A DNA stretch of 51,153 bases, from IMG/VR virus record IMGVR_UViG_637000105_000004, one strand, 5' to 3'. The notes below the pieces were generated by a model. That model was not told the origin of the DNA. It was given only the letters and a program-made list of their open reading frames with translations, and did no database searches. Shown in pieces: positions 3,905 through 47,834 of this stretch. Source of the stretch: a virus (lineage: Duplodnaviria; Heunggongvirae; Uroviricota; Caudoviricetes). A program made the translations under genes and the position numbers. The stretch's first letter is position 1, and each line of letters begins with the position of its first letter.

Positions 3905-4495
3905 ATGTCTCGAATTTTTGCTTACTGTCGGATATCAACTCTGGATCAGACCACCGAAAATCAACGCCGGGAAATCGAAAGTGCAGGTTTTAAAATCAAA
4001 CCTCAGCAAATAATCGAAGAACACATTAGCGGCTCAGCAGCAACCAGTGAGCGTCCTGGTTTTAACCGGTTGCTTGCTCGCCTGAAATGTGGTGATCAAT
4101 TGATTGTGACAAAACTGGATCGCCTTGGTTGTAATGCAATGGATATCAGGAAAACAGTGGAACAACTGACCGAAACAGGTATCAGAGTGCATTGCTTAGC
4201 ATTGGGGGGCATTGACCTGACCAGTCCAACAGGAAAAATGATGATGCAAGTAATTTCAGCAGTCGCTGAATTTGAACGAGACCTTTTACTTGAACGCACT
4301 CATTCCGGGATAGTAAGAGCCCGGGGCGCAGGGAAACGTTTTGGTCGACCACCTGTGTTAAATGAAGAACAGAAACAGGTGGTATTCGAACGAATTAAGT
4401 CAGGTGTAAGTATAAGTGCCATTGCCCGGGAATTCAAAACCTCGCGGCAAACCATTTTAAGAGCCAAAGCAAAACTTCAGACACCTGACATATAA
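3905..4495 (+). CDS. pin: Serine recombinase / DNA invertase (PinQ/PinR-like, 196 aa)
   Basis: N-terminal catalytic motif YCRISTLDQ with Ser, resolvase core, C-terminal HTH; adjacent to tail-fibre genes. Confidence 0.92.
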
Positions 4496-4722
4496 AAAAT
4501 AATCTCGGTGTGAGATGCTTTACGTCTTCCAAGCCCCCTTCCTTGCCGTAAATGGAAAGATACATCTAATTATAGAATTTATATGTTTTACCCTACGGCA
4601 GTGCTGGCCATTCAATATCCTGTGCAGTTGACGTATCAACACGGTTCAGCAACACCCGATACTTTTTCCAGGCTTCCAGCAACGGGGTTTCTTCCTCCGT
4701 TGCATATACAGCTCACCTTTTT

Positions 4723-5031
4723 TCACCCACGATTAACCAACAGCCAGACCAGCAGACACGCCACCACCGGCACAGCAAAATCCATCAGGCTTGCCACATC
4801 CCACACGCGCGGATCAAAACCGCCCCACCACGGCATGTTAATCCTCTTGCCATGCCCAAACATTTCAATCCAGCGATATTCCGCCTGGGTGTGTTCACGC
4901 GCAATGAAGAACGTACAACCGGCTATCGCCCCGTAAGCCCAGTTCCCGGTAAAAAGACCAACCAGTAGCTGCGCAGCCACAGCACAAAGCGCATGAAGGA
5001 AAGGTGTTATATCCATTTTCATCCTACCCAA
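4723..5031 (-). CDS. Small hydrophobic membrane protein (about 98 aa)
   Basis: ORF with predicted TM segments (LHALCAVAAQLLVGLFTG, AVPVVACLLVWLLV); likely start at MKMDITPF. Confidence 0.5.
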   Translation of the reverse strand: MGRMKMDITPFLHALCAVAAQLLVGLFTGNWAYGAIAGCTFFIAREHTQAEYRWIEMFGHGKRINMPWWGGFDPRVWDVASLMDFAVPVVACLLVWLLVNRG

Positions 5032-5058
5032 TAAAACGGGGCGCTCGGCCCCTTGATA

Positions 5059-6099
5059 TTATTTAGACGCAAGCGCCGCCTCAATTGCAGATAATCTTTG
5101 TCTTAATTCTGCGTTTTCTTCTTCCAGTGCTGTTATTCTGTCGTCTGACTCTCTGGCTACCTGAACAAGCAAGCCAGTAACACCAGAATAATCTACTGTG
5201 TAATAACGTTCACCTTCTTCACCTTCCGATCCGCTTGCACCGTCCTGATATTTCATTGCGGAACCTACAACTTCTGGGATTGCTTCCAGAGCTTCCTGTG
5301 CAATGACACCAGCATAGGGCATACCGTTTTCTTTAAGCGTGTATGTATAGCCGTTCATTTTACGGATGCGGTCGGTTGCATTATCGATCACCTGAATGTT
5401 GTCTTTCAGATCCCGGTCGGAATGCTGGTTAAATGCGGTGGCATGACATGCACCATTAACGCTTAACATATAGGTGTTATCGGTATTTTTTTGCGCATAG
5501 AACATATAAGCGCCACCATCAACACCGACTTCATAAACAACAGGACGGCTGGAGTTGCCCCACAATTGAGCAGTAACACCAGCATAAGCGGTTCCCTGTG
5601 TGTTTAATGTCATGGTTGACCCATGATTGGCATATTTGATCTGTAATGTGTCGGTGTAATCAAATTTAATAAGCGCGTTACTTCCACGCTTGCTGTATGA
5701 CATAAGGCAGTTACCCATTTTGAGGTATCCGCTGTCACCGGGAAAAATCATCGTACCGCCATAAAGGTTGGTAAAGTCCCAGCAAATGTTTGTCCCGTTA
5801 TCGTTCAGGTTAAGGCGCGCCATTGCGTTACCTGGACTGTCTATCCATTTTTTGAGGTATAGTTCGCAATACGCATCCTCAACACCTGCCGTCCTGTGAG
5901 TTGAGCGGAGTTTTCTCCCAAATATAGCTCCGCTAGTTGGCAATACCTGCTGATACCATGAAGCAGACCAGTCACCAACGATTTCATCTTTGCTGTCTAC
6001 ATATAATTTTGTTGCGTAGCTTCCTTGATCGTTTTTTAATTTGCTAACGTCGGATTTTAGCGTTTTGATGTCATCAGGAATTACTGTCGATGTAGCCAT
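5059..6099 (-). CDS. Tail fibre / receptor-binding protein with C-terminal intramolecular chaperone (peptidase S74-like) domain, 346 aa
   Basis: C-terminus DLKDNIQVID...YTYTLKENGMPYAGVIAQE...LLVQVARESDDRITALEEENAELRQRL is typical of self-cleaving tail-fibre chaperone domains; start overlaps upstream gene. Confidence 0.7.
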   Translation of the reverse strand: MATSTVIPDDIKTLKSDVSKLKNDQGSYATKLYVDSKDEIVGDWSASWYQQVLPTSGAIFGRKLRSTHRTAGVEDAYCELYLKKWIDSPGNAMARLNLNDNGTNICWDFTNLYGGTMIFPGDSGYLKMGNCLMSYSKRGSNALIKFDYTDTLQIKYANHGSTMTLNTQGTAYAGVTAQLWGNSSRPVVYEVGVDGGAYMFYAQKNTDNTYMLSVNGACHATAFNQHSDRDLKDNIQVIDNATDRIRKMNGYTYTLKENGMPYAGVIAQEALEAIPEVVGSAMKYQDGASGSEGEEGERYYTVDYSGVTGLLVQVARESDDRITALEEENAELRQRLSAIEAALASK

Positions 6100-35795: not shown

Positions 35796-36548
35796 TTATC
35801 TCGTCACTTTTCTTAATTGCACCTCAGCATATGCTTCTTCCTGCCAGCACTTTGTAACCAGTTTATCAATGACATCTGCATATCCTTTGTACCACTGATA
35901 ATCAGTCAGGTCTGGTACCAGCTTCTGGACATGACACCGCGCCAGTGTCGTTGGTAAACGACTAAACCGGTTTCCATTGCAACGCCCACAAATCTTATAA
36001 ACAGGCGCGCCATGAAGCCGGGTCCTTTTTTCATCCAGGACAATACCTTTACCCTTACACCCTCTGCACGCTGTGCTGACTTCTCCCTTACCATGACAAT
36101 GCTGACATAGTTCCTTCACCCACTCTTCCTTGATAACAGACTCCCCGCTTCTGGAGTATTTCACCACTTCGCGCAATACATTATGAAATCCAGTACCAGC
36201 ACAAGGCTCACAGCGAGCCTTACTTGCCGCAGACCTGGAATAATCAGCAAAGGCAAAACTCACAAGGTAAGGGATGATCTGTAACCGGATTTCTTCACTC
36301 AATTTGTTCAATGTCGGGTTATCCAGTGCCATCGCGTAATTGAGCAGACCTTCAATCGCAAACTGAGGATCCTGAACGCCAGCTTTTGCCAGGAATAAGG
36401 CAAACCCAAGCGGTGCTTTCGACTGCACCATCCCCTGCGCAGCCATCACATCCGTAATCGTTAAACCACCTGAGCCTGTCGCCGGTGCGGCATCACTCAA
36501 TTTTGGAGATTTTGGGGAGTAATATTTTGGTAAGGCTTCAAGGTTCAT
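35796..36548 (-). CDS. Q: Late gene antiterminator Q (about 250 aa)
   Basis: From MNLEALPKYYSPKSPKLSD with GGAGAA Shine-Dalgarno; Cys-rich zinc-binding region (CEPCAGTG, CQHCHGKG, CRGCKGKG); position upstream of lysis genes. Confidence 0.8.
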   Translation of the reverse strand: MNLEALPKYYSPKSPKLSDAAPATGSGGLTITDVMAAQGMVQSKAPLGFALFLAKAGVQDPQFAIEGLLNYAMALDNPTLNKLSEEIRLQIIPYLVSFAFADYSRSAASKARCEPCAGTGFHNVLREVVKYSRSGESVIKEEWVKELCQHCHGKGEVSTACRGCKGKGIVLDEKRTRLHGAPVYKICGRCNGNRFSRLPTTLARCHVQKLVPDLTDYQWYKGYADVIDKLVTKCWQEEAYAEVQLRKVTR

Positions 36549-36561
36549 GCTCGTTCTCCAC

Positions 36562-37557
36562 TTACGCCAGTACGCCAATTGCCAGCGCACGATCGATAAA
36601 ACGAAATATCAGCTCCAGTTGGGAGCCATACTTCTCTTCAAATGTCACGGTATCCGCATGCAGCTCGTCGTGATGCTTTCTGCACAAAGGCAACACAAAG
36701 AGATCATGCGCTTTTGTACCCATTCCACCCTGACCGTGGCCTATCAGGTGGTGGGGATCATCAGCTGGCTTTCCACAACATGCGCACGGCTGCGTCTTAA
36801 CCCAGCGCGTGTACTTTTCATTAACCCAGCGGCGACGTTTGGGGCGTAACATAAAAGACTCCGGCGACTCCGGATCCACTTTCAGCGCCAGCACCTTTTT
36901 CGCTTTATCCTGGATGATGCTGGTGGCAGGAACCGAAGGCACAAGGTCACTTTCCCGGGTGACAGATGGCACAACAGGCTTCGGTAATCTCAGTGCCTTA
37001 CGGGCTGCACTTTCCGGTAAGGCATCCGCCAAATCATTACGAACCAGCCACCAGCACAGTTCCGGCATTGTCACAACGTGACTGTCATCAAAACCGAGAT
37101 CCCGACGCACGACAGACAACACCCAGCGGGCACAGTTATCCGTTGCCATTGATTCCAGCCGTTCCGTGAACTGGTCACGCAGCTGGTTATCGCAGTGCCA
37201 GCACAGACGAATTGCTCCCGGAGCGTGCCGCATTGTGGTCATGTTCTCGCTGTGCCAGTCGGAATGAGGCCACTGACAGCCCTTTTCACGAAGTAACCAG
37301 CTTTCAAGACATTCCACGCCACCAGCACGACGGATCACTGCCTCATTGCGGAACACGGCCCGAACGGCAGGATCATCCGCCAGCGGTTGTGATGCCGCCG
37401 GAACGGCACCACTGGCGAAAGATGAATAACGTTCCGGCTCAGGCTCCAGCAGGACACGCCCCTGCATAAACAGGGGCATCAGCTCTGAACCTGGCCTGAA
37501 CAATACAATCCCCATACGCGGGGCAATTTCAGGGGTCAGTAGTGCTCTCACGGTCAC
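36562..37557 (-). CDS. DUF968 / YdfU-like protein (331 aa)
   Basis: Cys/His-rich C-terminus (CACCGKPADDPHHLIGHGQGGMGTKAHD, CRKHHDELH); resembles Qin YdfU from memory. Confidence 0.7.
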   Translation of the reverse strand: MTVRALLTPEIAPRMGIVLFRPGSELMPLFMQGRVLLEPEPERYSSFASGAVPAASQPLADDPAVRAVFRNEAVIRRAGGVECLESWLLREKGCQWPHSDWHSENMTTMRHAPGAIRLCWHCDNQLRDQFTERLESMATDNCARWVLSVVRRDLGFDDSHVVTMPELCWWLVRNDLADALPESAARKALRLPKPVVPSVTRESDLVPSVPATSIIQDKAKKVLALKVDPESPESFMLRPKRRRWVNEKYTRWVKTQPCACCGKPADDPHHLIGHGQGGMGTKAHDLFVLPLCRKHHDELHADTVTFEEKYGSQLELIFRFIDRALAIGVLA

Positions 37558-39582: not shown

Positions 39583-40520
39583 CCCCTGAATCCTGCCGGG
39601 ATCTGGCTGTAGTCCACATTGTCGTAACTGGCTTTGAAGTACGGGTCTTCGCGTTTTTCTGTGTACGTGCTGACGGACGGCGATAAGCGCAGGGAAAGCT
39701 CATCCCATTTTTCCCGCAGCTTCGACGGGCTGAGCACGTTACGGCACCAGAACGGATCGCGGCTGACGCGGCTGTACATCTCGCAGATTTGTTTGTGAGT
39801 ACGACCATCCTGCACACACATCAGGCGAATTTCGTTTGCCCAGGCTGTCCAGTTCGGTTCTTTGGGACGAACCACCTCGCCGTCACATTCGGCAGCCTGC
39901 TCGTACAGGGCGATGATTTTTTTCCAGAGCCACTGTGCGCAGGTCAAATCATCCTGCGTCCCCCACTGGCGTTTTTTAGGGCTGAATACAACCGCATCAG
40001 GATGGCGAGTTAAAAAATCCTGTTCAGCCGTCTGCGTGTCCGGTTGCGAAGAGTCCGGACGAGAAGGTTTTTTATCTGACGGATCATGTTTTGATTTTAC
40101 TGACGGATCCCCGCCAGATTCTGACGGGTGAAAACCCGCTTTTTTGCCAGATTTCGACGCATCAAATTTTGACGGGTCAGATTTTGATGCGTCAGATTTT
40201 GACGGGTCAGAATCTGACAGTTGAGAAAATGCCGCTGCCTGAAGCTTCGCAACGTTAAGCTGATAAACATTCGACGCATTGCGGTTACCCTGGCGACGCG
40301 CCTTACGCGTTAACCAGCCTTCTGCTTCCAGCCGTGCGATAGCCGTTCTGACGGTACTCATCCCCGCGCCAATCTGGCGTGCAATGGTTTCAATCGATGG
40401 CCAGCACACACCTTCGTCATTACTGAAATCAGCCAGGCGGGCCATAATTGCCACGCTGGATAATTTCATGCCTGACGCTGCGCAACCATCCCATACATAG
40501 CCGGTTAATTTAGTGCTCAT
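39579..40520 (-). CDS. Replication initiator (O-like, HTH N-terminal domain) containing ori iterons in its coding sequence (313 aa)
   Basis: N-terminal HTH (SIETIARQIGAGMSTVRTAIARLEAEGWL); internal SDPSKSDASKSDPSKFDASKS repeat encoded by DNA iterons. Confidence 0.7.
   Translation of the reverse strand: MSTKLTGYVWDGCAASGMKLSSVAIMARLADFSNDEGVCWPSIETIARQIGAGMSTVRTAIARLEAEGWLTRKARRQGNRNASNVYQLNVAKLQAAAFSQLSDSDPSKSDASKSDPSKFDASKSGKKAGFHPSESGGDPSVKSKHDPSDKKPSRPDSSQPDTQTAEQDFLTRHPDAVVFSPKKRQWGTQDDLTCAQWLWKKIIALYEQAAECDGEVVRPKEPNWTAWANEIRLMCVQDGRTHKQICEMYSRVSRDPFWCRNVLSPSKLREKWDELSLRLSPSVSTYTEKREDPYFKASYDNVDYSQIPAGFRG
40091..40220. repeat. Tandem ~15-16-bp iterons (putative replication origin)
   Basis: Six or more copies of CAGATTTTGACGGGT-like units in tandem inside the initiator gene. 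Confidence 0.75.
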
Positions 40521-40868: not shown

Positions 40869-41473
40869 GCGTTAGTTTCTCCACAGTCACGACACGCCAC
40901 GGCGCCCGGAGCTGCACACTCGCGGGCGTCACTACTTTCTGAAACGCAAAAGATTTTGTAGACCAGTGCTGCATGCTCCTGCAGCTTCGAAATTGAGAGG
41001 TACAGCTCATCGTTAATTGCTGTCTTCTCATGCGGTTCCACTACACCGTCTTCAATTGCTGAACGAATCTGTTTTGAATAACTGCCGATCTGTTCAATGA
41101 CTTCCAGCAGGCGTTGGTTGATATCGGCGTTGTCCACATCCTCGACGTCAGGAAGAGACACAAAGACGCCATTTGCAGACTGCGCCACTGCGTCAGCAAT
41201 GAAGTGAGTTCCACCAGCACGTTGCAAAATCATTGCCCATCCCAGCGGGAAAATCTGATCGCCATCGGCACGAAGGCGGTTAAATAATGCGTTCTCTGTT
41301 ACATCCAGCCAGTCAGCTGCTTCAGCGTAACCACCCGGCAACTTTGCGATAGTTTTTCTGACAGCTTTCACGTACCACTCAGGCTGTTTTTCTACTTTCC
41401 AGTGATGCTTACCCACGGTTAGCCTCATCGTTCTGTGGTTTCTGTTAATCGATTTATCCATTAGATTTTTCAT
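40865..41473 (-). CDS. Putative early regulatory protein (CII/CP76-like or YdaT-like, about 200 aa)
   Basis: ORF directly after cro-like gene with overlapping start; family assignment is tentative. Confidence 0.45.
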
Positions 41474-41654
41474 AAAGCTCAGGTTTAAATGGCAACCGTC
41501 CGCAAGTTCTATATGCAGCTTCTGCTGCACGTCCTTTTGGAATTAACTGGCCCGGACGGTTTCGCCACTGATAAACGGCTTCAGTTGTTATGCCGAAAAA
41601 AGCAGCAACTTTCTCAATACTGCCGAAGTAGCTTTCGATATCGTCAGTTGTCAT
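41454..41654 (-). CDS. Cro-like HTH regulator (66 aa)
   Basis: Small HTH protein (AAFFGITTEAVYQWRNR) divergent from the repressor gene. Confidence 0.8.
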   Translation of the reverse strand: MTTDDIESYFGSIEKVAAFFGITTEAVYQWRNRPGQLIPKGRAAEAAYRTCGRLPFKPELYEKSNG

Positions 41655-41751
41655 ACGCCCTCCAAACTAAGTTTTGTTAGATGCTAATTACAAATCTATC
41701 TTTGGTCAATAAAAACTAAGATTACTTAGCAATTAAAGAAATGGTGCTCCT
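41655..41751. promoter_or_regulatory. Immunity-region operator/promoter (OR-like) between cro-like and repressor genes
   Basis: 97-bp divergent intergenic region with repeated AACTAAG / CTAAG-N4-CTTAG / TTAG-N3-CTAA dyads. Confidence 0.65.
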
Positions 41752-42378
41752 ATGGAAACGGTTGGTCAGCGTATAAAAGCTCTGAGAAGAGTTACCAGAA
41801 CGTCCCAGAAAGAATTGGGTAAATTTTGTGGAGTAAGCGACGTTGCTGTGGGGTACTGGGAGAAAGACATCAATACCCCTGGCGGGGAGGCACTTTCGAA
41901 ATTAGCGAAGTTCTTCAATACGTCAATAGATTACATTCTTTATGGTGCTGAGTTTGAAGGCAAACTCGTCACAAACATGCGCAGAGTTCCTGTAATATCG
42001 TGGGTTCAGGCTGGGCAGTTTACTGAGTGCAGGGCAGCAGAAGTGTTTAGTGAAGTGGACAAGTGGGTAGATACATCATTAAAGGTTGGTGATAACTCAT
42101 TTGCATTAGAGGTTAAAGGTGACTCCATGACTAACCCTAATGGCCTCCCAACAATACCAGAAGGCGCAACAGTGATTGTAGATCCAGATGCAGAACCTCG
42201 TCATGGAAAAATAGTCATCGCTCGACTTGATGGAACAAACGAAGCTACAGTAAAAAAATTAGTCATCGATGGCCCTCAAAAGTTTTTAGTGCCATTAAAT
42301 CCTCGGTATCCCAACATCCCTATCAATGGTAATTGCCTTATCATTGGTGTAGTCAAAGGAGTTCAATACGAACTCTAA
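41752..42378 (+). CDS. CI-like repressor (HTH plus S24 LexA-type peptidase domain, 208 aa)
   Basis: N-terminal HTH (RTSQKELGKFCGVSDVAVGYWE) and C-terminal autocleavage domain with GDSM Ser and a downstream Lys. Confidence 0.9.
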   Translation: METVGQRIKALRRVTRTSQKELGKFCGVSDVAVGYWEKDINTPGGEALSKLAKFFNTSIDYILYGAEFEGKLVTNMRRVPVISWVQAGQFTECRAAEVFSEVDKWVDTSLKVGDNSFALEVKGDSMTNPNGLPTIPEGATVIVDPDAEPRHGKIVIARLDGTNEATVKKLVIDGPQKFLVPLNPRYPNIPINGNCLIIGVVKGVQYEL

Positions 42379-42384
42379 GATCTC

Positions 42385-42470
42385 TCTTCTCTAACTAAGG
42401 CACCGAACTAAGAAAAGTTTGGTGTTTTCTCTTGCCATGATAACTAAGTTAAGTTAGATTTTATATCAAA
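42385..42470 (+). promoter_or_regulatory. Putative OL/pL-like operator-promoter region downstream of the repressor gene
   Basis: Three more AACTAAG heptamers (42393, 42406, 42442) plus TTGCCA and TAGATT hexamers with 17-bp spacing. Confidence 0.45.
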
Positions 42471-42542
42471 GATAACGAACAGGCAGGACGCCCACGAAGT
42501 AGCCGCCTGGGGCATATGAAGTCCAGGATGATTCGTTAGCAA

Positions 42543-42568
42543 CAAAAAAGCGCCCTATAGGACGCTTC
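42543..42568 (-). terminator. Rho-independent terminator after the 42594-43106 gene
   Basis: Minus strand agcgtcctatagggcgct followed by tttttgttg. Confidence 0.6.
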
Positions 42569-42580
42569 GCTCTTTAACAA
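42569..42580 (+). promoter_or_regulatory. boxA-like element (GCTCTTTAACAA)
   Basis: Exact 12-mer matching the rrn/nut boxA consensus as recalled, on the strand transcribed from the putative pL. Confidence 0.4.
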
Positions 42581-42593
42581 TCTGGATGACTTA

Positions 42594-43106
42594 TTACTCA
42601 GATTTGAACTTTGGTTCTGGCAAAAGAGGAGGAGTTGAGTCCTCGAATCGTAGCCAGTGCTCCCAGATATCGTGGGATTGTAATTCCAGAAGACCAATTT
42701 GACGTGATGCAACTGCAGTGCCAGCTATAGTTCCTCCTACATAATCAACCTGGACGGACTTTGACGCTTTCTCAATTAATTCTGTCCAAGCTTCACTTTC
42801 CGCGTTAAAAGAAGCAGTTAATTCCTGCAGACGCTGTGGATCATCCTTGTTGTCTTGTTTCAAACGATTCAGGGCGGCCACCGAATACTTATTCTTAACC
42901 CAACTAACCTGAGCTAACTGAACTCTCTGACAAGCGTCCATATCAGTAGTTGTTTCCTGAGGCATATCAAAGCAGGAAATAAAAAAAGTCTCAACACCAT
43001 CATTTAGACTACTGCTCGGCTGGTTCAAAGCATCAGAAGCATTGGATGCTATCGGTATTATCAGTGCTACCGACAGAATCAAACGTTTAACATAAATCGC
43101 TCCCAT
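42594..43106 (-). CDS. Secreted protein with signal peptide (DUF1311/LprI-like, 170 aa)
   Basis: N-terminal signal sequence VKRLILSVALIIPIASNA; moron-like position and orientation. Confidence 0.65.
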   Translation of the reverse strand: MGAIYVKRLILSVALIIPIASNASDALNQPSSSLNDGVETFFISCFDMPQETTTDMDACQRVQLAQVSWVKNKYSVAALNRLKQDNKDDPQRLQELTASFNAESEAWTELIEKASKSVQVDYVGGTIAGTAVASRQIGLLELQSHDIWEHWLRFEDSTPPLLPEPKFKSE

Positions 43107-43129
43107 TTAATTATCCCCTCTAAGAACAG

Positions 43130-43560
43130 AGTCATCCAGATTAGCCGAATCCTTGTTGTTGGGGAATAACCAGGCCCACCTCGCCTGATGTGGCTAAAAG
43201 CAGGCACATAACAGCTAAGTATTTTCAACCAGAGAGAATCCTTAGCGTTGTGGTGAATGCGGCTCAGCGCACGCGGGTTAAGGTTGAGGCTGACAGTCGA
43301 CCTTCTGTGGATACCCACCCGCCTGGTGTGCAACCTTCGCCAGGCACCGGGAGGCCCCGGCACCACAACTTTATGCTGTGTGTAGTCCTGGCGGTACCAG
43401 CTTGTACCCTTGCTTCCGGCTGGTACCGCTCTTTTTACAAAACAGAGAAGAGCATCACCGGACGACGGGCTCATAACCCAATCCACCCGGGCGGCTGCCA
43501 CCGCAGGTGTTCTTCTCTGTTTTGTGGAGAAACCAACCGACCTTGCAGGGTCGATATGAT
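43130..43560 (+). other. GC-rich, highly structured non-coding segment (candidate cis-acting RNA or ncRNA)
   Basis: No credible protein in any frame despite open frames; perfect 15-bp long-range inverted repeat 43437-43451 / 43511-43525 and several local hairpins. Confidence 0.45.
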
Positions 43561-43573
43561 GAGGAGCAGCAAA

Positions 43574-43936
43574 ATGGCTAGCGAACGCAGTACCAACGTG
43601 CAGGAATTTATCGGGGAGCTGGACGGCGGCGTATTTGAAACCAAAATCGGCGCAGTTCTCAGTGAAGTCGCTTCCGGTGTGATGAACACGAAAACCAAAG
43701 GTAAGGTCTCGCTCAACCTGGAAATCGAACCGTTTGATGAGAACCGTGTGAAAATAAAACACAAACTCTCATATGTTCGTCCGACTAACCGCGGGAAAAT
43801 TTCCGAAGAAGACACCACCGAAACGCCGATGTATGTCAATCGCGGTGGTCGCCTGACTATTCTGCAGGAAGACCAGGGACAATTACTGACTCTTGCCGGT
43901 GAACCTGACGGAAAACTCCGCGCAGCAGGTCATTAA
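43574..43936 (+). CDS. YfdP-like protein (120 aa)
   Basis: AGGAG Shine-Dalgarno 9 nt upstream of ATG; followed by YfdQ- and YfdR-like genes as in CPS-53. Confidence 0.65.
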   Translation: MASERSTNVQEFIGELDGGVFETKIGAVLSEVASGVMNTKTKGKVSLNLEIEPFDENRVKIKHKLSYVRPTNRGKISEEDTTETPMYVNRGGRLTILQEDQGQLLTLAGEPDGKLRAAGH

Positions 43937-44001
43937 TATCGTTCTTAATTAACTGATTATTTATCTCATCACTGAATATCTTTATATAGTGAGGACTTAT
44001 T

Positions 44002-44826
44002 ATGTCTCAGAACTTAGACGCAACCGCAATTAATCAAATCCATGCCCTTATTTCTGCTCAGGGTGTTAATGAAATTATCAGTAAGATTGGTGCCGACGCA
44101 GTGGCATTACCTGAAAATTTCCGCATTCATGATCTGGAAAAATTTAATTTAAATCGCTTCCGTTTCCGTGGTGCGCTTTCCACTGCCAGCATCGATGACT
44201 TTACCCGTTATTCTAAAGATCTTGCGGATGAAGGCACCCGCTGCTTTATCGATGCCGATAATATGCGTGCCGTCAGTGTGCTTAACCTGGGTACTATTGA
44301 TGAGCCTGGTCACGCAGATAACACCGCCACTCTCAAACTGAAAAAGACAGCACCGTTCTCTGCTCTGTTGTCTGTTAACGGCGAGCGTAACTCCCAGAAG
44401 TCACTGGCAGAATGGATTGAAGACTGGGCCGACTACCTTGTGGGCTTTGATGCTAATGGTGATGCCATTCAGGCAACAAAAGCGGCTGCGGCAGTCCGTA
44501 AAATCACGATTGAAGCAAACCAGACCGCTGATTTTGAAGACAATGACTTCAGCGGCAAACGCTCCCTGATGGAGTCTGTCGAAGCGAAGACCAAAGATAT
44601 TATGCCAGTGGCATTTGAATTTAAATGCGTTCCGTTTGAAGGCCTGAAAGAACGTCCGTTTAAATTACGCCTCAGCATTATCACTGGCGATCGTCCTGTA
44701 CTGGTTCTGCGCATTATTCAGCTGGAAGCAGTGCAGGAAGAAATGGCTAACGAATTTCGTGATCTGCTTGTTGAGAAATTCAAGGACAGCAAAGTAGAAA
44801 CCTTTATTGGTACTTTTACCGCCTGA
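44002..44826 (+). CDS. YfdQ-like protein (DUF2303-like, 274 aa)
   Basis: Length and neighbourhood match YfdQ from memory. Confidence 0.7.
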
Positions 44827-44953
44827 TTTCATTACTGCAAATGCCCCTGCGGGGGCATTTATGGAAACGTAATTGACTCAATAATCGCCGGATGGTGAGG
44901 GCTTTCTTTTACCAGAATTCAGCGCGGTGCAGCGCATATACGTGGAGAACAAA

Positions 44954-45478
44954 ATGTCATTTATTAAAACTTTTTCCGGGAAGCATTTTTATTATGACAG
45001 GATAAATAAAGACGACATCGTTATTAACGATATCGCGGTTTCTCTTTCAAATATCTGTCGCTTTGCAGGACATCTTTCACATTTCTACAGCGTCGCCCAA
45101 CATGCGGTGCTTTGCAGCCAACTGGTACCGCAGGAATTTGCTTTTGAAGCGTTAATGCATGATGCAACAGAAGCGCATTGCCAGGACATCCCGGCGCCAC
45201 TGAAACGCCTTCTTCCTGACTATAAACGGATGGAAGAAAAAATAGACGCCGTAATCCGTGAGAAATACGGGTTACCCCCGGTTATGAGTACGCCCGTGAA
45301 ATATGCCGATCTCATCATGCTGGCAACCGAACGCCGCGATCTCGGGCTTGATGATGGCTCTTTCTGGCCCGTACTGGAAGGTATCCCGGCAACAGAGATG
45401 TTCAAAGTTATTCCACTGTCGCCAGGCCATACCTATGGGATGTTTATGGAACGCTTTAAAGAGTTAACTGAGTCGTAA
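44954..45478 (+). CDS. HD-domain phosphohydrolase (YfdR-like, about 174 aa)
   Basis: H...HD metal-binding pattern (HLSHFYSVAQHAV; MHDATEAH). Confidence 0.7.
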   Translation: MSFIKTFSGKHFYYDRINKDDIVINDIAVSLSNICRFAGHLSHFYSVAQHAVLCSQLVPQEFAFEALMHDATEAHCQDIPAPLKRLLPDYKRMEEKIDAVIREKYGLPPVMSTPVKYADLIMLATERRDLGLDDGSFWPVLEGIPATEMFKVIPLSPGHTYGMFMERFKELTES

Positions 45479-45586
45479 AAATCAGCACGTACGAATTCAA
45501 ACTCTGCCATAAAAGAACATATAAGTAATTTATTAACATATAGATATAGGTTATATTACAAATTGAAAAATTATTGGAGAGCAACA

Positions 45587-46453
45587 ATGAATCAAAATCC
45601 ATTCTCATTCTATGACTTTCTTGGATATTTAATACCAGGTGGTTTTTTTATCCTATTAATGTATTTCTGTGGTTTGACATTCGATCTAGATATTGTTATT
45701 GACTTAAGTGAATTGCTCAGAGGTCAAAGTCAAATCTTTGGCATTTTGAACTACGCTTCAATAGTTATTATATCTTATATAGCTGGACATTTTATTTCTA
45801 TCACATCAGCATTTTTTATCGAAAAATACATGAATAAAGAATTAGGATATCCTTCCAAATATCTATTTAAAAAATTGATAGATACCTCAGAAAGCATTTG
45901 TAGCCCATCATGCGATGAGAGAAGCGCTGATAAAAAAACAAAAATAAAGAATCGCATAATCAAATGCGTATTATGTCCAATAATACTATGGGATTTTATA
46001 ACACAAAAACTATGTTATTCTCAATCTCTACCATTTCATTTAGCTAATACAACATGGTTAATGATCAAAGAAGGTTATGAGAAAAAGTTCATAACAAATC
46101 GCCAATTATTACAAGATAAAAACGGACTTGATGATGATCTCTTCAGATTGGCATATCATTATGTTTATGAGTTTTCAAAACAACATCAAACAAAAATTCA
46201 AAACTATGTTGCATTATATGGTTTTTGCAGAAACATATGTTTAATCTTTATAATTTCATTTTGGGTATCAGTTCCAACCTTTATTTATCGATTATGTACT
46301 CATAGTGATTATCTTTATAGTTTACTTTCAATAATGCTTAGCTTTTTCTTCGTCTATGTTTTCTATGTTGGTTTTGTTAAATTTTATAGAAGATATACTT
46401 TAGAAGTATTAATGGCATTTGCTGTACTTCAAAGTAACGACACTATTCGTTAA
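45587..46453 (+). CDS. AT-rich integral membrane protein (about 288 aa, 4 predicted TM helices)
   Basis: GGAGAG Shine-Dalgarno 5 nt upstream of ATG; two TM helices at each end flanking a soluble middle; very low GC. Confidence 0.7.
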   Translation: MNQNPFSFYDFLGYLIPGGFFILLMYFCGLTFDLDIVIDLSELLRGQSQIFGILNYASIVIISYIAGHFISITSAFFIEKYMNKELGYPSKYLFKKLIDTSESICSPSCDERSADKKTKIKNRIIKCVLCPIILWDFITQKLCYSQSLPFHLANTTWLMIKEGYEKKFITNRQLLQDKNGLDDDLFRLAYHYVYEFSKQHQTKIQNYVALYGFCRNICLIFIISFWVSVPTFIYRLCTHSDYLYSLLSIMLSFFFVYVFYVGFVKFYRRYTLEVLMAFAVLQSNDTIR

Positions 46454-46494
46454 TAATGTTGCTCCCGTGTGCAGACGGGATAATGGAGAAACGT

Positions 46495-46701
46495 ATGCTG
46501 AACCTCGATTGTGTTCCTATCTCAACTTATTGCAAAGAAACTGGCGAAACTCCTGAAGCAATAAACAAACGTGTACAGCGCGGTGTTTGGCGTGAAGGTG
46601 TTCAGGTTTTAAAGGTTGAAGGCGTTAAGGAGAGGTGGATTGATCTTAGTGAGGTTGCAAAATGGGCCAGACAAAACTGCTCAAACTACCGCGCGGCGTA
46701 A
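46495..46701 (+). CDS. xis: Putative excisionase (Xis-like, 68 aa)
   Basis: Small basic DNA-binding-like ORF immediately upstream of and overlapping int; GGAG Shine-Dalgarno. Confidence 0.55.
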   Translation: MLNLDCVPISTYCKETGETPEAINKRVQRGVWREGVQVLKVEGVKERWIDLSEVAKWARQNCSNYRAA

Positions 46702-47834
46702 CAATCAGGAAACACCACCAGGGAGAAACGATCAATATAACTTTCACCTACAAAGGAGTTAGATGTCGTGAGCCGCTTTCCAATCTGGAAGTAACACCAA
46801 AGAACATTAAATACGCCGAGCGTACACTCGGCGAAATCCATAATAAGATCGAAAGGGGAACATTCATTTATGCAGAATATTTTCCCCGTTCTGCTCGTTT
46901 GAAAATTTTTGGTAATGCTGCTGCAAGCAAAACGGTAAAGATGTACCTAGACGAATATCTTGAAATCTGCGAAACAAGAAAACTTTCACCCTCTACGATT
47001 GGTGGCTATAAAAAATGCCGTAGTGCGTTAGCCTCACTTCACATTTGCCCTGCAAGTGAATTAACACCAGCAACCCTGAAAGCGTGGATTCAAAGCCAGA
47101 AAACAACCTTAAAAACCATTCGCAACCAGTTATCTTTCCTACGGTCAGCACTTGATGAAGCCGTGACCGATGGGGTACTTCAAATTAACCCCGTATCGTT
47201 AGTAACAGCTTCGCGCTACCAAAGTGATAAGTCAGAAGCAGAAAGCAGCTATGTGGTTGATCCGCTATCACCAGCAGAAGTTGATGCATTACTAGCAGCA
47301 GCCGGAAACAAACAATGGGAAAATCTGTTCCGGTTCGCCATACATACAGGCCTGCGTAGTTCTGAATTATGTGCCCTACGATGGCATGATATCGACTTTG
47401 TTGGAAAAACAGCCCATGTTCAGAGCGCAAGTGTTGTCGGAGTTATCAAAGGAACAAAGACAAAAGCCGGTACCCGTAAAGTTGAACTGACTGAAGAAGC
47501 AATGTTGGCGTTGATAAACCAGAAGCCATTTACATTCATGAAGGATGCTACTGTCTTTGAAGATCCAAAGACCAATAAACCCTGGACAAGTGCTGATGCA
47601 ATCAGGAAAAAAGCATGGGTGCCAACATTGCGAAAAGCAGGTATTCGTTACAGAAATCCATATCAAACTAGGCATACATTCGCCACCCGCCATATCAGCC
47701 GGGGAGCAAACCTGTTTTGGCTTGCAGCTCAAATGGGGCATAAAGGGCCGGAAATGTTATTTCGTCATTATGGTTCATATTTAAAGGAATATGACGGTAA
47801 TACGACCAGCAATATCACAAAAAAAGCCACTTAA
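46662..47834 (+). CDS. int: Tyrosine site-specific integrase (390 aa)
   Basis: N-terminal arm-binding type motif LPRGVTIRK...TFTYKGVRCRE; C-terminal catalytic region with R...HxxR...Y (RHTFATRHISRGANLFWLAAQMGHKGPEMLFRHYGSY). Confidence 0.92.
   Translation: MGQTKLLKLPRGVTIRKHHQGETINITFTYKGVRCREPLSNLEVTPKNIKYAERTLGEIHNKIERGTFIYAEYFPRSARLKIFGNAAASKTVKMYLDEYLEICETRKLSPSTIGGYKKCRSALASLHICPASELTPATLKAWIQSQKTTLKTIRNQLSFLRSALDEAVTDGVLQINPVSLVTASRYQSDKSEAESSYVVDPLSPAEVDALLAAAGNKQWENLFRFAIHTGLRSSELCALRWHDIDFVGKTAHVQSASVVGVIKGTKTKAGTRKVELTEEAMLALINQKPFTFMKDATVFEDPKTNKPWTSADAIRKKAWVPTLRKAGIRYRNPYQTRHTFATRHISRGANLFWLAAQMGHKGPEMLFRHYGSYLKEYDGNTTSNITKKAT

Follow-up and report, generated by a model that had tools for sequence, protein, structure and literature searches.

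How lambdoid prophages that lack an N gene (the SfV, ST64B, yfdPQR and Gifsy-like classes) pass their early terminators is a question to which the literature offers only the guess of a put-like RNA (PMC12315714). The DNA analysed here, a stretch of 51,153 nucleotides called the window below, is a lambdoid prophage of the SfV/SfIV/cdtI/mEp460/ST64B kind with the early-left operon order yfdP-yfdQ-yfdR-xis-int. Between its predicted pL promoter and yfdP it holds a sequence that matches the BoxA of rRNA operons. Could such a site, in the absence of N, help early-left transcription to reach these genes?

The early-left control region and its BoxA

The control region surrounds a cI-type repressor gene and comprises the following elements, listed together with the Q-like gene:

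35799-36590, minus strand: Q-like antiterminator gene
41454-41654, minus strand: cro-like gene
41665-41671 and 41714-41720, plus strand: OR-side operator-like AACTAAG repeats, between the cro-like gene and cI
41752-42378, plus strand: cI-type (LexA/UmuD-like) repressor gene (phrog_4 transcriptional repressor, E 1.7e-55)
42393, 42406 and 42442 (span 42393-42448), plus strand: OL-side operator-like AACTAAG repeats, the copy at 42442 lying within the pL spacer
42432-42460, plus strand: predicted sigma70 promoter pL, with TTGCCA (42432-37), a 17-nt spacer and TAGATT (42455-60); inferred start at about 42467
42474-42537, plus strand: structured pL leader RNA of 64 nt, with helices P1 (42474-79/42532-37), P2 (42482-84/42490-92) and P3 (42506-10/42523-27)
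42544-42568, minus strand: predicted intrinsic terminator, with stem GAAGCGUCC/GGGCGCUUU, loop UAUA and U-tract
42569-42580, plus strand: BoxA, GCTCTTTAACAA, 31 nt past the leader RNA and at about +102 from the inferred pL start
42594-43106, minus strand: convergent moron ORF of 170 aa with a signal-peptide-like N-terminus (phrog_7681; weakly LprI-like)

AACTAAG occurs six times in the window, and five of the copies cluster around cI at the positions listed, compared with an expectation of 4.3 over the whole 51 kb on both strands. The promoter assignment is supported by the homologous loci of other immunity types, where a sigma70 promoter matching at 9/12 positions or more was found in 47/88 loci and in 0/88 control windows. 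The modal distance from the -10 element to helix P1 of the leader in these 88 loci is 12 nt, which places the leader start at about +5 of the pL transcript in all immunity types. An earlier note on the window had described an early-left control region with repeated AACTAAG operator-like motifs, a BoxA on the strand transcribed from pL, and the presence of a Q-like late antiterminator. Our results agree with this description: the predicted pL is well supported and is read, like BoxA, on the plus strand, five of the repeats lie around cI, and the Q-like gene is present.

The 12-mer at 42569-42580, which the same note had called an exact rrn-type boxA, is indeed a 12/12 match. It conforms to rrn UGCUCUUUAACAA as well as to GYTCTTTAANA, the functional gamma-proteobacterial BoxA consensus derived experimentally by Baniulyte et al. 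(PMC5725501), of which it is the sole match in the window. When up to one mismatch was allowed, a search of the 51 kb returned only this one GCTCTTTAACAA site, and hence no second BoxA-like site as a nutR counterpart. Whole-window shuffles (51 kb) yielded at least one BoxA match by chance in 13-26 of 100 cases, and a window-wide match taken alone is weak evidence. A chance origin was ruled out by position and by the comparative evidence given below. The site directly abuts the 3' side of a hairpin (42547-42568), ends 14 nt before the stop codon of the minus-strand ORF and is followed on the plus strand by approximately 1 kb without an ORF; in a single-sequence minimum free energy (MFE) fold, part of it is paired. 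We give about even chances to the 12-mer being a true BoxA, at which the RNA would be bound by the host NusB-NusE(S10) heterodimer independently of N.

The adjacent hairpin and the minus-strand ORF at 42594-43106 do not appear in the earlier note. On the plus strand the order before BoxA is A6 (42544-42549), GCGCCC-TATA-GGACGC and TTC. Read on the minus strand, the same stretch has a GC-rich 9-bp stem, a tetraloop and the U-tract UUUUUUGUUG (UUUUGUUG follows GAAGCGUCC-UAUA-GGGCGCUUU), and the stop codon of the moron lies 26 nt upstream, as in an intrinsic terminator. The hairpin energy is -12.9 kcal/mol (z -3.3) on the minus strand vs -7.2 kcal/mol on the plus strand, where the stem has a C.A mismatch in the place of the minus-strand U.G and the U-tract is poor. 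The Rfam matches at the hairpin are terminator-like only, all on the minus strand. Judged by these features, the hairpin is the probable minus-strand terminator of the convergent moron, so that hairpin and BoxA would form a two-strand module.

Distribution and conservation of the hairpin-BoxA module

As an anchor for the comparison we used the 60-nt stretch 42476-42535 just after pL, which is common to many lambdoid phages of various immunities and genera. Among IMG/VR contigs, hairpin and BoxA occur in 23/128 distinct leader contexts, at a fixed +87 from the leader core, and the remaining contexts have nothing nearer than three mismatches to BoxA. A second set, with one genome per species, gave 92 leader-core loci (697 kb scanned) that span Escherichia, Xenorhabdus, Photorhabdus, Yersinia, Serratia, Erwinia and Pectobacterium. 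On the strand of the leader, GYTCTTTAANA is matched 17 times in this set, each time at +3 to +81 nt from the leader 3' end, with approximately 1.3 matches expected over the 697 kb. Eleven of the 17 are the hairpin module, and the other six (five Xenorhabdus, one Kluyvera) are hairpin-less BoxAs with unrelated flanks.

Hairpins in a pL context were also picked without reference to BoxA, and in 32 of the 34 distinct contexts an intact BoxA follows. Over these 32 contexts, BoxA positions 1-9 and 11-13 are invariant, with C/A at the consensus N as the sole variation, against 16 variants of the hairpin loop and a linker nucleotide found in all states. Most copies of the module are closely related and have spread by recombination, and recent ancestry may account for part of their invariance. 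From position 15 onward the sequences diverge into 39 different downstream contexts. The module amounts to about 45 nt, made up of an A-tract, the hairpin, a linker of 0-1 nt and GCUCUUUAAMAAUC, with BoxA as its 3' half, and it is also found behind a different pL leader in Klebsiella phages. BoxA is carried by approximately 18-25% of the loci with the same pL leader, and it is absent from SfV, SfII, ST64B, ZF40, YeP1, SPN3UB and mEp237.

The earlier note had made its proposal depend on conservation of the 12-mer in related phages, and this is borne out in part. Where BoxA is present it is invariant and locked in position, as expected of conservation under constraint (32/34 intact; 17/17 at +3 to +81), though it is present in only about 20% of leader loci. 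By these comparisons BoxA is, to all appearance, a selected, position-locked and facultative element.

The same data bear on two alternatives. The 12-mer lies directly 3' of the hairpin, its CUCUUU could serve as a weak U-tract, and 13/100 shuffles of the window match the consensus by chance, so that it could be the T-rich flank of a bidirectional terminator or pause signal with an accidental resemblance to BoxA. This is very improbable in our view, because the same hairpin in 47 unrelated phage contexts bears other flanks and never BoxA, conservation runs through AACAAU and thus past any U-tract, hairpin-less BoxAs occupy the same place in Xenorhabdus and Kluyvera, and the plus-strand hairpin is weak (-7.2 kcal/mol). 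The second alternative is a vestige of an ancestral nutL (BoxA, boxB and N), with no present function, that hitch-hikes with the adjacent terminator, where leader and exchangeable cargo would be joined by recombination. Full nutL/nutR and N do occur in relatives that share the leader, the module sits exactly where downstream sequences start to diverge, and many of its copies are nearly identical. A vestige is nevertheless difficult to reconcile with the complete lack of variation at 12/13 positions over 32 contexts, compared with 16 loop variants and all linker states, or with variation confined to the degenerate position of the consensus. In addition, the motif occurs in several genera and behind different leaders, and is associated with antisense cargo, and we regard the vestige as improbable, if less so than the terminator flank.

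The association with cargo was measured as opposite-strand ORF cover over the next 1 kb. The median is 679 nt in module loci vs 222 nt in BoxA-less loci of the species set (Mann-Whitney p 4e-5), and 647 vs 246 nt in viral contigs (p 3e-11), with ORFs called mechanically and loci that are phylogenetically non-independent. This association fits both halves of the module, since the terminator would stop the cargo transcript and BoxA would protect the pL RNA.

BoxA could also act negatively, as in suhB, with Nus factors dampening translation or expression downstream, promoting Rho termination and so limiting early-left expression. Repression mediated by BoxA is documented for sites less than 50 nt upstream of a start codon (PMC5725501). 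One type of locus (L002) has this suhB-repression geometry, with a plus-strand ORF that starts 46 nt past BoxA, and speaks against the main reading there. The window itself has no plus-strand ORF for about 1 kb past BoxA, and the module correlates with antisense cargo and not with a nearby start codon, which leaves negative action only a slim chance.

Both elements are frequent in Escherichia coli. A 121-nt query covering leader, hairpin and BoxA matches 1527/5426 complete E. coli genomes, with 80% or more of the query covered in 1111 of these, CFT073 and 042 among them; this corresponds to approximately 28% of complete genomes for the leader and 20% for the stretch with leader and BoxA. The E. 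coli genomes, CFT073 and 042 included, carry no annotation at the site, and the prophages of CFT073 and 042 have 100% identity with the window over 42465-42585. At this prevalence both elements are open to direct genetics and to the use of existing transcriptome data.

N, boxB and the path from pL to yfdP

The earlier note had found no N-like gene, and this holds on closer analysis. PHROGs scans of the 20 ORFs of the pL and pR operons returned repressor, Cro-like, CII-like, O-like, RusA, Q-like and other families and no N family, and the hits of a second scan, for arginine-rich motifs, were for the most part out-of-frame noise, with no convincing N candidate in module-type loci, although very small or atypical N proteins could escape both scans. 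An in-frame extension of 128 codons before yfdP (43190-43573) matches no family. Folding of the 39 distinct downstream contexts gave no conserved hairpin 3' of the module BoxA that would correspond to boxB. With the PHROGs, arginine-rich and folding scans all negative, we rejected a hidden N gene or boxB in window-type loci. For the related phage LLS, too, no N was reported and a put-like RNA was merely speculated (PMC12315714).

In Xenorhabdus prophages that share the leader, nutL and nutR sites of the classical kind are found. BoxA is accompanied there by a boxB of the GCGCUGAAAAAGCGC type or by another boxB, and the pR-side BoxA lies approximately 1.2 kb away. Their N-like proteins carry arginine-rich motifs such as MHNFHGYDNARKRRHERRKELQEAH. 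One leader family is thus found in three kinds of phage, namely those with N and nut sites, those with an orphan BoxA, such as the window, and those with neither. The BoxA that follows the leader in Xenorhabdus belongs to nut sites, and the orphan could accordingly be a remnant of such a site, a point against the main reading.

Past BoxA, transcription from pL meets the following elements:

43217-43438, plus strand: STnc100/PasD-family sRNA-like element (RF02076, 37.5 bits, E 1.4e-5)
43436-43526, plus strand: long near-perfect hairpin of 91 nt just upstream of yfdP (-45.3 kcal/mol, z -6.75)
43574-47834, plus strand: translated early-left genes (yfdP-, yfdQ- (DUF2303) and yfdR-like genes, a 296-aa ORF, xis and int), reached by pL transcription

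The first translated early-left gene is yfdP, with its start at 43574, and approximately 1.1 kb of the pL RNA before it is untranslated. For about 0.5 kb the plus-strand RNA is antisense to the moron, and over 42650-43200 it has more C than G, with a GC skew down to -0.28, as expected of a Rho substrate. The sRNA-like element aligns with RF02076 over its full length, terminator included, at a score below the gathering threshold (37.5 vs 47 bits); for the description of the STnc100/PasD family we relied on a bioRxiv paper. It ends in a strong plus-strand terminator, with a stem at 43390-43430 followed by CUCUUUUU (-23.7 kcal/mol, z -4.5). The suggestion that a downstream structured RNA acts as the antiterminator is not borne out by these features: the element at 43217-43438 is, as predicted from its sequence, an obstacle to pL transcription and not an obvious antiterminator.

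The leader RNA, a proposed mechanism and known systems

The structured RNA most relevant to pL transcription may instead lie upstream of BoxA, in the leader at 42474-42537, which the earlier note had overlooked. The leader has three helices, P1 (6 bp), P2 (3 bp, invariant) and P3 (5 bp), and an invariant core, GGCAGGACGCCCACGAAGTAGC, at 42482-42503; more than 22 consecutive nucleotides (GGCAGGACGCCCACGAAGUAGC), together with GGC.UA.GAA and AUGA, are essentially invariant across genera. In a gapless alignment of 60 distinct variants, 95.4% of cells are paired and double changes occur at 10/14 pairs. The covariation score is 0.576, compared with 0.148 in shuffles (0/500) and at most 0.127 in controls with slid partners. 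RNAalifold independently predicts the same structure, and we used this comparative structure because the single-sequence MFE fold (z -0.25) misses it. A pseudoknot between 42502-04 and 42511-13 is a weakly supported candidate (CG 45, UG 10, UA 2, GC 1).

A covariance model of the leader scores 90.2 bits in the window and recovers a single copy from each phage, in every case in pL, with no second copy on the pR side and nothing in HK022, HK639 or lambda. The lambda pL leader shares just GCAGGACGC with it, at about +5 to +13. In Rfam, leader and module gave nothing beyond terminator-like matches on the minus strand, also when the short region was searched at E<=10, and a text search with the leader core returned no paper, although the core may have been listed before among 'put-like' sequences. 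The leader is in this sense a new element, covariation-supported, unannotated and present across Enterobacterales, without a counterpart in Rfam and different from HK022 put. An identity with put had been considered for the shared strings CGAAC and CAGGAUGA and was rejected: these are superficial, and the covariance model and the putL-like RNA of HK639 show no likeness. Hammerhead and other ribozymes, a riboswitch and a CsrA site (CAGGACG in a hairpin loop) were also considered and are unsupported.

BoxA-only, N-independent antitermination of long untranslated RNAs is known for rRNA, suhB and the CRISPR leaders of Salmonella (PMC5725501, PMC7665894). We propose, with equal weight for and against, that Nus factors are loaded in the same way at the BoxA of the window and shield the 1.1 kb of untranslated pL RNA from Rho, in a module that is paired with a terminator for the convergent moron. 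After induction, RNA polymerase would leave pL, transcribe the leader and pass the hairpin, which is weak on the plus strand owing to the C.A mismatch and is followed there by a poor U-tract. In the other direction, the moron transcript would be ended by the hairpin and its minus-strand U-tract, together a strong predicted terminator, before it reaches pL and cI. The emerging BoxA RNA would load NusB-S10, which with NusA, NusG and SuhB would form a complex of the rrn, suhB and CRISPR-leader type, and this complex would keep Rho off the C-rich untranslated RNA (antisense moron and sRNA region) before yfdP. The terminator at 43390-43437 may be handled by another factor or be leaky, or yfdP may have its own promoter.

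Complexes of the rrn type counter Rho and are not known to defeat strong intrinsic terminators, so that full early-left read-through is probably not the work of BoxA alone. With the terminator at 43390-43437 and the -45 kcal/mol hairpin before yfdP, it cannot be the whole answer. Nor is it essential to early-left expression in the family, given that only about one fifth of the leader-bearing phages carry it. Where it is carried, its invariance and locked position, together with the lack of N and boxB, favour N-independent action through host Nus factors. The earlier note had suggested N-independent early antitermination, either dependent on the host and boxA or by way of the downstream structured RNA; the first route is the best reading, with BoxA as an accessory anti-Rho and insulation module, and the second is not supported.

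In a tentative alternative, less likely than not, the main early-left antiterminator is the leader RNA and not BoxA. HK022-type put acts in cis on RNA polymerase, at the beta' zinc-binding domain, and suppresses termination. The leader would be a cis-acting RNA that, with a function like that of HK022 put, modifies RNA polymerase directly to read through intrinsic terminators, and BoxA would be an accessory anti-Rho addition where the cargo is antisense. Whatever the immunity type, the leader starts near +5 of the pL RNA, and strong covariation in P1 and P3 together with more than 22 invariant nucleotides that are unpaired or in short helices, from Escherichia to Xenorhabdus, suggests a conserved host machine as its binding partner. 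N-less phages with strong terminators on their pL path carry the leader, and the use of a put-like RNA by this class had previously only been guessed (PMC12315714). A put-like role in N-less phages is attractive. However, the leader has no detectable similarity to the put RNAs of HK022 and HK639, being a three-helix junction and not two stem-loops, and each phage has a single copy of it, in pL, in contrast to the putL and putR of HK022. It also coexists with classical N and nut sites in Xenorhabdus prophages, which argues against its being a plain replacement for N. Under a wider view, which we hold possible but doubtful, the leader would represent a new class of cis-acting regulatory RNA at the very 5' end of pL transcripts in many lambdoid prophages of Enterobacterales. 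It would bind a conserved host machine, be it RNA polymerase, an elongation factor or a Nus factor. Leader and orphan BoxA would then make up a two-part, protein-free antitermination system distinct from N/nut and put, and the cassette of reverse terminator and BoxA would be a mobile 'convergent-gene insulator'.

If functional, the BoxA would extend N-independent regulation by Nus factors, so far a matter of rRNA, suhB and CRISPR arrays, to phage early operons, and the module suggests how phages tolerate cargo inserted against early transcription. The leader would add a second cis element, an unannotated and deeply conserved structured RNA with which pL transcripts start.

Compared with the BoxA of rrn, suhB and the Salmonella CRISPR leaders, which act through NusB-NusE-NusA-NusG-SuhB, the core GCUCUUUAACAAU is identical. 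The window BoxA is likewise a single copy about 100 nt past a promoter, on a long untranslated transcript without N or boxB, and the hairpin directly 5' of it recalls the boxB-boxA order of rrn. It differs from these systems in lying in a phage early operon, in having a 5' hairpin with a non-conserved loop that is the predicted terminator of the opposite strand, and in travelling as a mobile module with convergent cargo. In addition, no boxC was recognised, and a semi-conserved AUCUGGAUAUCC follows the BoxA of the window.

In lambda nut, BoxA is also found in a lambdoid pL leader, and the Xenorhabdus relatives have true nutL and nutR with a GAAAA-loop boxB and N-like proteins. In contrast, no boxB follows BoxA in the window, where an N-like ORF and a nutR counterpart are lacking as well. 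The BoxA of the window is the full rrn consensus, whereas that of lambda is the weaker CGCUCUUA. With the put RNAs of HK022 and HK639 the leader shares an N-less phage class, a start within a few nucleotides of the pL start and a length of about 65-70 nt. It differs from put in sequence and by covariance model, in its three-helix junction with a possible pseudoknot in place of two adjacent stem-loops, and in its occurrence in pL, with none on the pR side, and also in phages that have N. Finally, lambdoid prophages are known to insulate morons by flanking terminators, and here, too, opposite-strand cargo has its own predicted terminator beside the control region. The window differs in having a BoxA fused to this terminator on the opposite strand, an arrangement that suggests a way of dealing with convergent transcription on both strands.

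The pL leader RNA and its distribution

The pL transcript has an unannotated structured RNA at its 5' end, listed here with features further along the early-left region:

42474-42537, plus strand: structured leader RNA, 64 nt
42594-43106, minus strand: convergent moron, encoding a 170-aa protein (phrog_7681)
43217-43438: STnc100/PasD-family sRNA-like element with a strong plus-strand terminator, scoring below the Rfam gathering score
43436-43526: near-perfect hairpin (91 nt, -45 kcal/mol), directly after the sRNA-like element and just 5' of yfdP

The leader RNA has no Rfam entry; it folds into three helices with strong covariation, and has an invariant core of 22 nt. At least 92 Enterobacterales species and more than 120 viral contigs carry it. 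The stretch formed by the leader, the following hairpin and BoxA is 100% identical in E. coli CFT073 (H96, 3070772-3070892) and strain 042 (H97), and is present in 1111 of the 5426 complete E. coli genomes (at least 80% coverage). The stretch itself carries no annotation.

Several comparison loci carry natural variants of the leader: P3 is deleted in L019, the 3' half is replaced in L105 and L338, and L075 has an insertion in J2/3-P3. These are possible natural loss-of-function alleles, which would be of use for comparison. The exact core also occurs in two assemblies labelled as non-Enterobacterales, L342 (Chryseobacterium sp., together with the BoxA module) and L353 (Pseudomonas lundensis); in both cases contamination or mislabelling seems likelier than a true host range.

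Sequences around the leader and BoxA

On the 3' side of the leader RNA, the subgroup with a CCACC/UCAUC P1 has a second conserved leader block, ..UUAACGCGCAGCAGGU..AAACGUUCCGCYRGCCNGGCG.., whose hairpin seems to show covariation. Klebsiella phage Kp4882-1 has this block ahead of the hairpin and BoxA module, and no three-helix leader.

Second leader block: L088 2560-2620; L089 2560-2620; L090 2450-2500; many of L316-L407

On the 3' side of BoxA, many contexts (module loci such as L363, L352 and L231) share a semi-conserved AUCUGGAUAUCC, which contains the palindrome GGATATCC and may be either a recombination joint or a signal akin to boxC. Of this sequence, just AUCUGGAU is retained in the window (42581-42587). 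The protein encoded by the moron has a signal-peptide-like N-terminus and matches LprI (lysozyme-inhibitor) weakly, below the Pfam cut-off.

The sRNA-like element and the 91-nt hairpin are kept as a whole block (43217-43526) in SfV and vB_EcoM-689R6. A plus-strand open frame of 128 codons (43190-43573), which leads into yfdP in frame, spans the sRNA-like region; it is probably non-coding, since it has no PHROG match and overlaps conserved RNA structure.

Within the O-like replication gene, a mir-5880 match at 40145-40219 was rejected as spurious, reflecting repeats or an inverted repeat. The encoded peptide shows a repeated SKSDxSK, and the region is probably the origin iteron region.

Comparison with N/nut, put and lambda

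Xenorhabdus prophages combine the leader RNA of the window with classical nutL/nutR sites (BoxA plus boxB, of two boxB types) and encode arginine-rich proteins of the N-like kind. nutL and the N-like gene are separated by an IS in L377 (transposase ORFs 4471-5543).

Xenorhabdus leader and nut loci: L377 4340-4380 and 5552-5881; L381; L370; L378; L330

The leader RNA is unlike the put RNAs of HK022 and HK639. The pL leader of lambda (NC_001416, L408; 35560-35582, minus strand) reads AUCAGCAGGACGCACUGACCACCAUGAAGGUGACGCUCUUAA and was not scored by the leader covariance model. It shares the 9-mer GCAGGACGC with the leader core and has a small AUGAA-loop hairpin directly ahead of the lambda BoxA; this could be a reduced relative, or a coincidence.
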